A stretch of DNA of 2,216 nt from Escherichia coli (GCF_003334305.1 NZ_QOWS01000056.1), one strand, 5' to 3'. Numbered from the stretch's first letter, positions 1 through 2,216 are shown. Made by a program: numbers and translations. Notes: generated by a model from the letters alone, not told the origin.

Positions 1-33
1 AGAAATATGTTCCATCAATTTTTTAAGTTCCAT
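1..33 (-). CDS. First 11 codons ([11 protein letters not shown]) of a further H-rpt transposase ORF that runs leftward out of the window; unknown whether it is full-length or another truncated copy
   Basis: Positions 1..44 are identical to 381..424 and 761..804, including the ATG (31-33) and the Shine-Dalgarno (38-44). Confidence 0.4.
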   Translation of the reverse strand, partial: MELKKLMEHIS

Positions 34-158
34 TTGTTCACCTTATTTATGTAAGGAGTATTTGATCATGTATAAGCAATAAAAAACAGCTTCAGGTAAT
101 GAGGAATATCTCAATTTTTAAACATAAAATGCGAATTATTTAGTACAAAAAAGTAGCG

Positions 159-413
159 TTACGTGATCTTTCCCTGGGATACAACTCTGGCAATGGTATC
201 GTGAACAGGAATACCATTTTCAAAATCACCATATTGCTTCAAAAAATCGAGATGTGTTTCCCCGAAATCCTCTATATCTTCCCAACCTTCTGCACCAGAA
301 ATAACGGCACAAATAGTCAACAGTAGAATATCTGACAATTTATGCACCACTTTCCAGGCTTGTCTGTAATCGGGGGTAATAGAAATATGTTCCATCAATT
401 TTTTAAGTTCCAT
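159..413 (-). CDS. Truncated ISAs1-family (H-repeat-associated) transposase, N-terminal fragment, 84 aa; second identical copy created by the tandem duplication
   Basis: Nucleotide sequence identical to 539..793 (the 380-bp unit is repeated exactly). Same Shine-Dalgarno and start context. Confidence 0.8.
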
Positions 414-417
414 TTGT

Positions 418-424
418 TCACCTT
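418..424 (-). promoter_or_regulatory. Shine-Dalgarno (AAGGTGA) for the H-rpt ORF starting at 413
   Basis: Identical to 798-804; 4-nt spacer to the ATG. Confidence 0.5.
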
Positions 425-538
425 ATTTATGTAAGGAGTATTTGATCATGTATAAGCAATAAAAAACAGCTTCAGGTAATGAGGAATATCTCAATTTTTA
501 AACATAAAATGCGAATTATTTAGTACAAAAAAGTAGCG

Positions 539-793
539 TTACGTGATCTTTCCCTGGGATACAACTCTGGCAATGGTATCGTGAACAGGAATACCATTTT
601 CAAAATCACCATATTGCTTCAAAAAATCGAGATGTGTTTCCCCGAAATCCTCTATATCTTCCCAACCTTCTGCACCAGAAATAACGGCACAAATAGTCAA
701 CAGTAGAATATCTGACAATTTATGCACCACTTTCCAGGCTTGTCTGTAATCGGGGGTAATAGAAATATGTTCCATCAATTTTTTAAGTTCCAT
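539..793 (-). CDS. Truncated ISAs1-family (H-repeat-associated, H-rpt) transposase, N-terminal fragment only, 84 aa; probably non-functional as a transposase
   Basis: Residues 1-79 ([79 protein letters not shown]) match, from memory, the N-terminus of E. coli H-repeat proteins (YhhI/YdcC-like, about 378 aa). The ORF then ends after 5 unrelated codons (QGKIT-stop), so the DDE catalytic region is absent. An AAGGTGA Shine-Dalgarno lies 4 nt upstream of the ATG. It resembles my recollection of the 84-aa YbfQ (unverified). Confidence 0.8.
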
Positions 794-797
794 TTGT

Positions 798-804
798 TCA
801 CCTT
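798..804 (-). promoter_or_regulatory. Shine-Dalgarno (AAGGTGA) for the H-rpt ORF starting at 793
   Basis: Minus strand reads ataAAGGTGAacaaATG. Identical elements at 418-424 and 38-44. Confidence 0.5.
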
Positions 805-1018
805 ATTTATGTAAGGAGTATTTGATCATGTATAAGCTATGAAAAACAGCTTTAGACAATAAGTAGTATCTCAATTGTTGAACTTAAAATTCGAATTATT
901 TAGTACAAAAAAGTAGCGTTACGTGATCTTTCCCTGCAAATGGAACGCAAAATAAACACCTATTCCATGAGTTATATAATTTTTCACAATGATTAATTTG
1001 TTTTCTCAGGAAGAGATT

Positions 1019-1588
1019 TTATTTCTCTTCACTACGAATTAGTTCATGCTGTATCTTTATTAAACATTCGTAAGACTCATTTTTGTTCGGGAGATGTGCT
1101 GTCATTCGAGCATAAGTTGGTTTCTCATCTTTAAAATATTTTACCATGATTGAATTATCAAGGACTGCCAACAACTGAACTGGATCACTGCTCTTTTTTT
1201 GATAGATACCCGCTCTTATATAACTTCTAAACCGATCGCCGAGAAACGCCGTTTTTTCTGCTGTATTTATCAACTCCTGCAACGTTCCTTTGATGGCATG
1301 ATTTTCATTAAGGCGTAGTGACCCGACGCGAATTAAGAGTCTCGCCCCGCTTGGTGTGAATTTATTATTTTTACATGTACCCAGTTCTGTTTGCCAATAA
1401 TACTCACCGATGTCCTCATTCTGATACCATCTCCACATGGCTTTATTATTTAAGACAGGAAACGCGGAAAAAATAGTACCCTTAGCGAAAATAGTAAAAC
1501 AATCATGATCTTTAGCTTGTATTTCGCAATCAGCTATAACACCAAAACTAACAAATATCATCAGCAAAAAGAACAAAACTCTTTTCAT
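1019..1588 (-). CDS. Candidate Rhs immunity protein, secreted/periplasmic (N-terminal signal peptide), 189 aa
   Basis: Intact 189-aa ORF whose ATG (1586-1588) overlaps the toxin stop TGA (1585-1587) as ATGA. A GAGG Shine-Dalgarno lies 9 nt upstream. The N-terminus [24 protein letters not shown] has basic residues, a hydrophobic core and a small-residue cleavage region. The gene is AT-rich (about 30 percent GC in a sampled stretch). Immunity role is inferred from position and coupling only. Length and signal peptide resemble my recollection of E. coli YbfC (unverified). Confidence 0.7.
1532..1588 (-). other. Predicted Sec signal peptide (residues 1-19) of the 189-aa ORF
   Basis: [19 protein letters not shown] followed by DCEIQ. 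No canonical lipobox (Asp precedes the Cys), so signal peptidase I cleavage is more likely than lipoprotein processing. Confidence 0.55.
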
Positions 1589-2216
1589 TTTCTTATTCCT
1601 CTCGATGTTCTCTGTTTCATTTTAGCTAAAATTTCACCCAAATCATCTATCCCTGCTGTTGCTGGCCCATCGGGTTTATTAATGTCTGGGAATAAATAGG
1701 GTTCTGCACAAGTATATCCTGGTGGTAATTGAGTTGTTGGCCAATTTGTCTGTGGCAGGTAATCACTTGCTGTCTTTGTATCCATCCCTGGATACTGGGA
1801 ATCATCCTGTGGCGTACAAGTCAGATTTGGTTTTACCCACTTCCTGCAATACAGTGTGTAGTCGTAAGGGCTTAATACTCTGAAGAATGTTTTGAAAACA
1901 TTAGGCGCACTACTGGCCTGGTCAATAGGATATGGCAGTCTTAATTGTTTCGCTATGTCCGGCAATTTACTTGGATCGGGCGTAGGCGGTTTGTTGGGTC
2001 TCGCTCCATATCCGCCATTATTTAAGTGTCCATATTTTGATGCCAGTCCCATTGAATCTATATACTGAACCGGATTCAGCGGATACTGATAAAAATTCCA
2101 TCCCCCCTTCAGCCCAATCGGATCCTGAGTGATATACCTCCCCTGCAGCGGGTCATAATAGCGGTGGCGGTTGTAATACAGGCCGGACTCCTCATCATAC
2201 TGCTGCCCCGGCAGCC
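1585..2216 (-). CDS. Rhs-family polymorphic toxin, 3' portion: end of the conserved Rhs core fused to a variable C-terminal (toxin) domain; 5' end lies beyond the window
   Basis: Minus-strand translation of 2214..2044 gives [57 protein letters not shown] with no stop codon back to the window edge. This is the hallmark C-terminal end of Rhs/YD-repeat cores (established knowledge). The frame continues uninterrupted to TGA at 1585-1587. The supplied ORF (1585..2052) begins at an internal Met only because the true start is outside the window. Confidence 0.85.
1588..2043 (-). other. Variable Rhs C-terminal domain (Rhs-CT, candidate toxin), 152 aa, activity unassigned
   Basis: Sequence immediately after the demarcation motif: [50 protein letters not shown]...[22 protein letters not shown]. 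Pro-rich with 3 Cys. I see no recognisable nuclease, deaminase or other catalytic motif by eye. Position after the core demarcation is where polymorphic toxin domains sit (established knowledge). Confidence 0.6.
1597..1602 (-). promoter_or_regulatory. Shine-Dalgarno (AGAGGA) for the 189-aa ORF, embedded in the 3' end of the toxin CDS
   Basis: Minus strand reads cgAGAGGAataagaaaATG, with 9-nt spacing from GAGG to the ATG. Confidence 0.5.
2044..2216 (-). other. Conserved C-terminal segment of the Rhs core, including the core/CT demarcation motif region
   Basis: Contains DPIGL followed 21 residues later by [10 protein letters not shown], a PxxxxD-x-GL demarcation motif. The segment is markedly GC-rich (about 59 percent by hand count of 2101-2216) compared with everything downstream. 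Confidence 0.8.

Follow-up and report, generated by a model that had tools for sequence, protein, structure and literature searches.

The Rhs tips constitute a store of antibacterial activities, in which every newly described family has tended to expose a further vulnerable target. Two genes of the most studied bacterium, b0703 (ybfO) and b0704 (ybfC) of Escherichia coli, are still labelled 'pseudogene' and 'uncharacterized protein', respectively. They correspond to the C-terminal tail of an Rhs protein and to the small open reading frame beside it, both of which lie in the window analysed here (the whole stretch of DNA, 2216 nucleotides from E. coli). About two thirds of complete E. coli genomes contain the tail, in which no catalytic motif can be recognised. 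Unusually for an Rhs tip, the predicted location of its partner is the periplasm. The question raised by this locus is whether the two genes encode a toxin and its immunity protein and, if so, in which compartment the toxin acts. Should the toxin be active, two orphan genes of K-12 would gain a function, and the toxin could also point to a new target in the cell envelope. Should it be inactive, the locus is ordinary Rhs debris.

Identity and genomic context of the locus

The window matches the RhsC element of E. coli, which lies between kdp/ybfA and ybgA. The region of interest is the ybfO(rhsO)-CT/ybfC cassette of this element, that is, an Rhs polymorphic-toxin tip with its adjoining partner gene. 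The ybfO/ybfC locus has long been annotated in K-12 and is already known as such, and it is not presented here as a discovery. The gene order in K-12 is rhsC–ybfB–ybfO–ybfC–ybfQ/ybfL/ybfD, where ybfO of MG1655 is an rhs fragment that lacks its N-terminal part. Strain GE3 differs from this order only in the H-repeat remnants downstream of ybfC. Over positions 1019–2052, which cover the tail and ybfC, identity is 100% with GE3 and 99.8% with K-12 MG1655. GC content is 59–64% in the core and 39–43% in the tail and ybfC (values for the K-12 locus), and this fall is the classic Rhs core/extension structure.

The initial annotation had asked whether the sequence upstream of the tail belongs to a full-length rhs gene or to an orphan fragment of the core. 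In the nearest genomes it is an orphan, and other strains carry the tail on a complete rhs gene. The orphan module of the closest genomes has the order rhsC, ybfB, a 1521-nt fragment that keeps homology to the core, and ybfC; this order is known from those genomes, the window itself ending short of the junction between ybfB and the fragment. The cassette is present at a coverage of at least 80% in 3518 of 5426 complete E. coli genomes (~65%). The junction of ybfB with the orphan was counted in 2646 genomes, so that about three quarters of the carriers have the orphan arrangement. The remaining E. coli carriers, between about a quarter and a third of the total, have this tail at the end of a full-length Rhs protein of ~1400 amino acids, annotated as 'RHS element core protein'. 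Examples within the species are Ec40743 and O157:H7 EDL933 (1399 amino acids each), and full-length proteins with this tail also occur in Kluyvera (1384 amino acids), Salmonella salamae (1394 amino acids) and Phytobacter (1383 amino acids). In EDL933, a primer of a published PCR check falls inside the tail, at window positions 1981–2000 (PMC7216683). An intact reading frame for the tail, with an identity of at least 99%, occurs in 2737 genomes.

Downstream of ybfC, positions 1–1018 (minus strand) consist of AT-rich debris of H-repeats (ISAs1 family), identified with a repeat finder, by a match to NF033564 and from annotation. Two identical tandem units of 380 bp (1–380 and 381–760) are accompanied by a diverged partial unit (761–~937). 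Each 380-bp unit bears an 84-amino-acid fragment of the ybfQ transposase (159–413 and 539–793). This debris is part of the context and lies outside the toxin pair.

The Rhs core terminus and its extension

A single open frame runs along the minus strand from position 2214 to position 1585 and encodes 57 residues of Rhs core followed by 152 further residues and a TGA stop codon. The initial annotation had drawn this feature as 1585–2216. The open frame is real and starts at 2214, the last two bases of the window being a cut-off codon. The Rhs reading frame continues past the right edge, and the window thus reaches 57 codons into the core (2044–2214, minus strand; ~60% GC), within the RHS repeat-associated core domain. 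Residues 1–57 match two NCBIfam models, RHS_core (NF041261, E-value 8e-32, profile positions 1205–1261 of 1261) and Rhs_assc_core (TIGR03696, 72.7 bits against a cut-off of 32.5). Because these curated models match at their 3' ends, the terminus of the Rhs core is real and ends exactly at DSMGL, and the core ending that had been read from the 39 residues closing this stretch is confirmed. The last ten of these residues form the demarcation motif, PxxxxD[P/S]xGL.

The extension had been described as an in-frame, Pro-rich and Cys-containing tail of 152 amino acids, and translation and composition agree with that description. The whole tail (1585–2043, minus strand) contains 13.8% proline, three cysteines and one histidine, and it is basic (pI 9.1) with an Arg/Lys-rich C-terminus. 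Its first 38 residues (1930–2043, minus strand) form a Pro-rich and poorly conserved linker, characterised by alignment gaps and by AlphaFold pLDDT values below 50. Residues 39–152 (1588–1929, minus strand) form a conserved toxin-like core, as judged from alignments, composition, the model and dN/dS. The conserved motifs of this core are SPYDYxxYCxKW, LxC, DY-P, LPxGYxC, (T/A)A(G/D)xDD and a C-terminal RGxRK. In an alignment of 20 family members C112, P107, A130 and D134 are invariant, and C66, C76, W69, D94, G109, F118 and R151 are kept in at least 90% of the sequences.

Several features that might have indicated an activity were looked for in this region. The family alignments contain no conserved histidine, and the toxin-like core of E. 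coli has none at all, so a Cys-His hydrolase was rejected. A pore-former was rejected as well, since the tail has no hydrophobic or transmembrane-like segment (maximum KD15 0.56). There is also no GxSxG motif in the toxin-like core.

The family is small. Among 1.84 billion representative proteins, an exhaustive HMMER scan identified only 28 relatives of the tail, and word-indexed searches yielded a few more. A profile scan of genome contigs, based on a 12-sequence alignment of the core and a single peptide pattern, gave 6 loci. Members occur in the Enterobacteriaceae (E. coli, Salmonella salamae, Kluyvera, Citrobacter, Pseudocitrobacter and Phytobacter) and in the Betaproteobacteria (Acidovorax, Paracidovorax, Ralstonia and Delftia), as well as in several metagenomes; this range is a lower bound, because a single peptide pattern underlay the genome scan. 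In every member with available N-terminal sequence, the domain comes after an Rhs core end. A profile search for other types of carrier (CdiA, PAAR-only or colicin-like proteins) returned short fragments only and no new architecture. Across the genera of the Enterobacteriaceae dN/dS is 0.19–0.31 for the tail and 0.10–0.20 for YbfC, and both are under purifying selection.

Searches for known families and folds

The view that the tail is of an unrecognised type holds across Pfam, NCBIfam, PADLOC, PHROGs and the PDB. Pfam contains no match for the tail or for any of 20 family members, and in an NCBIfam search of the window the Rhs core end and an ISAs1 fragment were the sole matches. Neither protein of the pair has a match in PADLOC or PHROGs. 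PDB sequences compared with the tail by phmmer and by the family profile gave a best E-value of 0.88, and no E-value below 0.4 was obtained when they were compared with single sequences and the toxin family profile. For YbfC there is no match in Pfam, NCBIfam or the PDB sequences, and Pfam is also blank for every member of the YbfC alignment.

Searches with predicted structures gave a similar picture. For both the tail and YbfC, fold searches of AlphaFold models against the PDB and AFDB50 recovered only their own uncharacterised relatives. A Foldseek search of the toxin model against the PDB had a best E-value of 4.1, which is meaningless. For the tail this absence of a fold match is weak evidence, because the toxin-only model is itself of low confidence (pLDDT 59.6). 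Co-folding with YbfC raised the pLDDT of the toxin core from ~53–78 to 73–85 (beta-core), with YbfC at 76–92 in the same model. Profile-HMM and fold searches of the kind proposed in the initial annotation therefore matched no characterised toxin family, and the tail and its partner belong to no described family.

The partner with predicted export and its probable coupling to the tail

The gene ybfC (1019–1588, minus strand; annotated 'protein YbfC' in E. coli) encodes a beta-rich protein of 189 amino acids with four cysteines that is predicted to be exported by the Sec pathway. Its N-terminus consists of MKR and a hydrophobic run of 15 residues, with a Kyte-Doolittle maximum of 3.46 over 10 residues. 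The predicted signal peptide comprises 19 residues (1532–1588, minus strand), and cleavage probably occurs before DCEIQ; the assignment was made by eye and from hydropathy, on the sequence only.

The tail and ybfC overlap by four nucleotides, ATGA (1585–1588, minus strand), which combine the TGA stop of the Rhs tail with the ATG start of ybfC. The same overlap is found in 10 of 12 related loci, and this arrangement suggests translational coupling of the two genes. A GAGGA Shine-Dalgarno sequence for ybfC (1597–1601, minus strand) is located 8 nt upstream of the ATG, inside the codons that specify the conserved R-G at the C-terminal end of the toxin. Most of the related junctions likewise show a purine-rich element of the GGAG/AGGA type, equally far from the start. 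The RGxRK motif is encoded by AGA-GGA-nnn-AGA-AAA-TGA, which is the Shine-Dalgarno sequence and ATGA of the downstream gene. Because its codons double in this way as the ribosome-binding site and the start/stop overlap, the conservation of RGxRK may reflect a constraint of translational coupling and not a property of the toxin itself. On the same grounds RGxRK was given less weight as a functional motif of the toxin.

In the 12 loci where both genes are readable, a YbfC homologue with a predicted signal peptide follows the tail without exception, over a range of 37–100% toxin identity, which upholds the earlier proposal that the tail is paired with the adjacent secreted reading frame. The homologues are 188–201 amino acids long and 20–78% identical to E. 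coli YbfC, and each of the 12 has an N-terminal lysine or arginine followed by a hydrophobic run (KD10 2.4–3.7). The predicted mature proteins contain either two or four cysteines, of which C30 and C175 are nearly invariant. Divergence of the toxin and of its partner are strongly correlated over 66 pairs (r = 0.93), with r = 0.38 among the distant pairs only. Where cassettes occur in arrays, exactly one small open reading frame comes after each tip and before the next cassette. This pairing, divergence and array layout are the behaviour expected of a toxin-immunity pair, and YbfC is a candidate periplasmic immunity protein. One locus (L007) has an extra YbfC paralogue without a toxin.

The ybfC gene of EDL933 departs from this pattern. 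A T-run in codons 5–7 contains one additional T, which shifts the frame, and the gene lies beside an intact full-length Rhs gene with the tail. An in-frame methionine at residue 10 could start a shortened product. A frameshifted ybfC is unexpected for an actively delivered toxin, unless the downstream start rescues the gene.

Proposed delivery and mode of action

The full-length carriers have a DUF6531/YD-shell architecture, and in several genomes they are linked to components of a type VI secretion system (T6SS). In Phytobacter a VgrG gene (TIGR03361, E-value 6e-181) is located directly upstream of the tail-bearing Rhs gene. In Citrobacter and Pseudocitrobacter the array with the orphan cassette is headed by a full-length Rhs gene, with a VgrG gene immediately before it, and in a further locus (L004) genes for VgrG, DUF2169 and PAAR-like proteins adjoin the array. 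At the kdp–ybgA locus of E. coli no vgrG is found within the 7–9 kb inspected on either side. To our knowledge K-12 has no T6SS.

Based on sequence comparison and predicted features, it seems fairly likely that the tail represents a new family of Rhs toxin, delivered by the T6SS and acting in the periplasm, with YbfC as its periplasmic immunity protein. The fusion of the tail to the PxxxxD[P/S]xGL end of the core is observed directly. From established Rhs biology, the aspartyl autoprotease of the core would cut the tail off after the …GL of a full-length protein, and the released tail would be enclosed in the YD-repeat shell and delivered by the T6SS on the VgrG spike. The toxin's site of action would then be the periplasm or the envelope of the recipient cell. 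This site is suggested because YbfC and all of its homologues have predicted Sec signal peptides and an even number of cysteines, and the three conserved cysteines of the toxin could be oxidised in the periplasm. YbfC, a predicted beta-sandwich protein, would bind and block the toxin there.

In K-12-like genomes the cassette is, from its context, an orphan behind rhsC–ybfB. It probably serves as standing immunity and as a spare tip, which recombination in the ~1.2 kb of shared core could move onto rhsC. The arrangement expected from such recombination, with the tail on a full-length Rhs protein, is the one found in other strains.

What the toxin would do in the envelope can be suggested only with low confidence. 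The usual signatures of periplasmic effectors (Cys-His, GxSxG, a lysozyme fold or transmembrane helices) are missing, which favours a small disulfide-stabilised domain that may bind or cleave an envelope component. Peptidoglycan, a lipid-linked precursor or a periplasmic protein are conceivable targets, perhaps engaged through the conserved cysteines, aspartates and aromatic residues. The literature searched contains no experiments on toxicity, neutralisation or localisation of the tail or YbfC.

Alternative explanations

Cytoplasmic nucleases, ADP-ribosyltransferases and NADases make up most of the characterised Rhs tips, and a periplasmic site of action would run counter to this usual pattern. 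The tail might instead be a conventional toxin of the cytoplasm, such as a divergent nuclease or an NAD-consuming enzyme, in which case YbfC would not be its direct inhibitor and would either intercept the toxin during its transit through the periplasm or have an unrelated function. Such a toxin would fit the precedent of the characterised tips, the basic character of the tail with its Arg/Lys-rich C-terminus, and the way EDL933 tolerates a frameshift in ybfC, with an intact full-length Rhs gene beside it. However, the basic C-terminus is at least partly explained by the overlapping Shine-Dalgarno sequence and start codon of ybfC. Moreover, in no locus does a cytoplasmic reading frame separate the toxin from YbfC or from the following cassette, the predicted signal peptide of YbfC is kept in all 12 loci, and no nuclease, ADP-ribosyltransferase or NADase motif and no Pfam match was found for any member of the family. 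A toxin acting in the cytoplasm is thus considered unlikely. About equally improbable is that the E. coli cassette is a decaying relic, in which ybfO is an inactive pseudogene and ybfC a leftover or an independently useful periplasmic protein. The intact and nearly uniform frame of the tail in 2737 genomes argues against decay, as do the low dN/dS values of both genes and the presence of the same tail on intact full-length Rhs proteins in several species, and orphan Rhs and CdiA tips are functional in other systems (PMC3150448). These observations have to be set against the annotation of ybfO as a pseudogene in MG1655, its N-terminal truncation in ~75% of carriers and the IS and H-repeat debris around the cassette; K-12 is also, as far as we know, a strain without a T6SS.

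An effector directed at eukaryotic cells or involved in interaction with the host, with YbfC as a secreted accessory factor, appears very improbable. Tight coupling of the toxin to a downstream gene, with the two diverging in step, is the signature of self-protection, the family is common to soil- and plant-associated Betaproteobacteria and to commensals, and arrays of orphan tips with partner cassettes are typical of interbacterial systems. In favour of a role in the host, the toxin fold has no precedent with a bacterial target, and in a transcriptome of non-O157 STEC the ybfC and rhsC gene families are more highly expressed in HUS-associated isolates (PMC6033998). An in-silico survey of EHEC touches on the pair with a weak threading match, and a promoter catalogue also mentions it; beyond this survey, this catalogue and the STEC transcriptome, no literature on the pair was found.

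The preferred reading remains a toxin of the periplasm that is neutralised by YbfC. A stronger form of it can be put forward tentatively, and is somewhat doubtful as it stands: the ~115-amino-acid core may be a new toxin fold that kills from the periplasm through a cell-envelope target unexploited by known T6SS and Rhs effectors, and YbfC may represent a new family of beta-sandwich periplasmic immunity proteins, the pair being hidden in ~65% of E. coli genomes including K-12.

Comparison with known systems

Several known systems resemble parts of this proposal. Colicin M-type toxins, which are lipid II phosphatases, attack from the periplasmic side, and their immunity protein faces the periplasm, as is proposed here. 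Their motif is DxYDx5HR, and a YD-x5-(R/K) stretch within a 12-residue segment of the tail superficially recalls it. However, the first Asp and the His of the motif are absent from the tail, the position after the cysteine is variable in the family (R/K/N/D/Q/H/F), and there is no match to colicin M in sequence or fold. The motif was rejected on residue conservation in the 20-sequence alignment, and with it membership of this group. The beta-sandwich proteins of the DOMON/CBM9-like type also count among the closest known systems, with the gamma subunit of ethylbenzene dehydrogenase (2ivf_C), NxrC (7b04_C) and CBM9 (1i82_A) as representatives.

The T6SS effectors with periplasmic targets, namely the Tae/Tai amidases, Tge/Tgi muramidases and Tle/Tli lipases, likewise have a partner that is predicted to be periplasmic, and they share with the tail a link to VgrG, which here is found next to its carrier in several genomes. 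In contrast to these effectors, the tail has none of their catalytic signatures (a Cys-His dyad, a catalytic Glu in a lysozyme fold, or GxSxG) and no match to them in sequence or fold. The mode of delivery also differs, the tail being an Rhs-encapsulated tip and the others free cargo of Hcp or VgrG.

The closest likeness in organisation is to other Rhs elements, whose characterised immunity proteins, among those known to us, are cytoplasmic or membrane proteins. E. coli RhsA–E and the orphan rhs-CT/rhsI modules of Dickeya dadantii and Salmonella Typhimurium (PMC3150448, PMC7043789) have the same GC-rich core ending in PxxxxD[P/S]xGL, followed by an AT-rich variable tip and a small downstream reading frame. 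As in the cassette described here, the orphan copy of those modules stands behind the main gene with a shared core, and H-repeat or IS debris is nearby. The difference is that the present tip falls in no described toxin family and that its partner has a predicted signal peptide. The architecture of the locus is the usual one for an Rhs tip with its immunity gene and, in K-12-like genomes, for an orphan module; what sets the locus apart is that neither tip nor partner falls in a described family and that export of the partner is predicted.

At the junction between the toxin and its candidate immunity gene ybfC, the sequence AGAGGAnnnAGAAAATGA (window 1585-1604) encodes the conserved toxin C-terminus R-G-x-R-K, and it doubles as the Shine-Dalgarno sequence of the immunity gene together with the ATGA start/stop overlap. 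Equivalent junctions occur in nine of the related loci (L004, L007, L014-L016, L018, L020, L022 and L025). Since the R-G-x-R-K codons also supply the ribosome binding site and the overlap, this stretch is under a dual coding constraint common to Gamma- and Betaproteobacteria.

In E. coli O157:H7 EDL933, ybfC (L027 6001-6571) has gained one T (+1) in the run of Ts that spans codons 5-7, within the signal peptide. The adjacent full-length Rhs bearing the tail is intact. The same search returned a second strain, ERL06-2497, with the same 1-base length difference. Translation could start instead at an in-frame Met at residue 10, which would shorten the signal peptide of the product.

Downstream of ybfC, the window contains two tandem H-repeat units of 380 bp (1-380 and 381-760) that are 100% identical, followed by a partial third unit (761-~937). 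An 84-aa N-terminal fragment of a ybfQ-type ISAs1/H-repeat transposase is encoded on the minus strand at 159-413, in the first unit, and a second copy, also on the minus strand, at 539-793, in the second. MG1655 has one unit and K-12 GM4792 has two. Five positions distinguish the window from GM4792 and are the same in both units, so either the copies are being kept identical, or the repeat was duplicated recently or arose in the assembly as an artefact.

The scan of genome contigs also recovered two short contigs (L012 and L013) whose match to the E. coli toxin core is 97-99% identical. They belong to MAGs labelled Flavobacterium psychrophilum and Candidatus Nanosynbacter, but almost certainly represent E. 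coli contamination or mis-binning and not true hosts.

When the YbfC half of the AlphaFold co-fold (model mecc8048c6101) is searched against AFDB50, uncharacterised ~185-aa proteins match at 10-18% identity with Foldseek E-values of 1e-6 to 3e-10. These derive from Planctomycetes (Roseiconus, Stieleria), Lentisphaera and Delftia, so the predicted fold may be wider than the toxin family.

At L007, a second YbfC paralogue (5404-5973), 31% identical to E. coli YbfC, directly follows the toxin/YbfC pair. No toxin gene accompanies this paralogue, which is probably an orphan immunity gene. In EDL933, additional small genes annotated as 'NTF2 fold immunity protein' and 'DUF6258 family protein' lie downstream of ybfC (L027 4674-5730), between it and an ISEc1 remnant. 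In K-12, ybfQ takes the place of these genes, which suggests that O157:H7 and K-12 differ in the set of orphan immunity genes downstream of ybfC.
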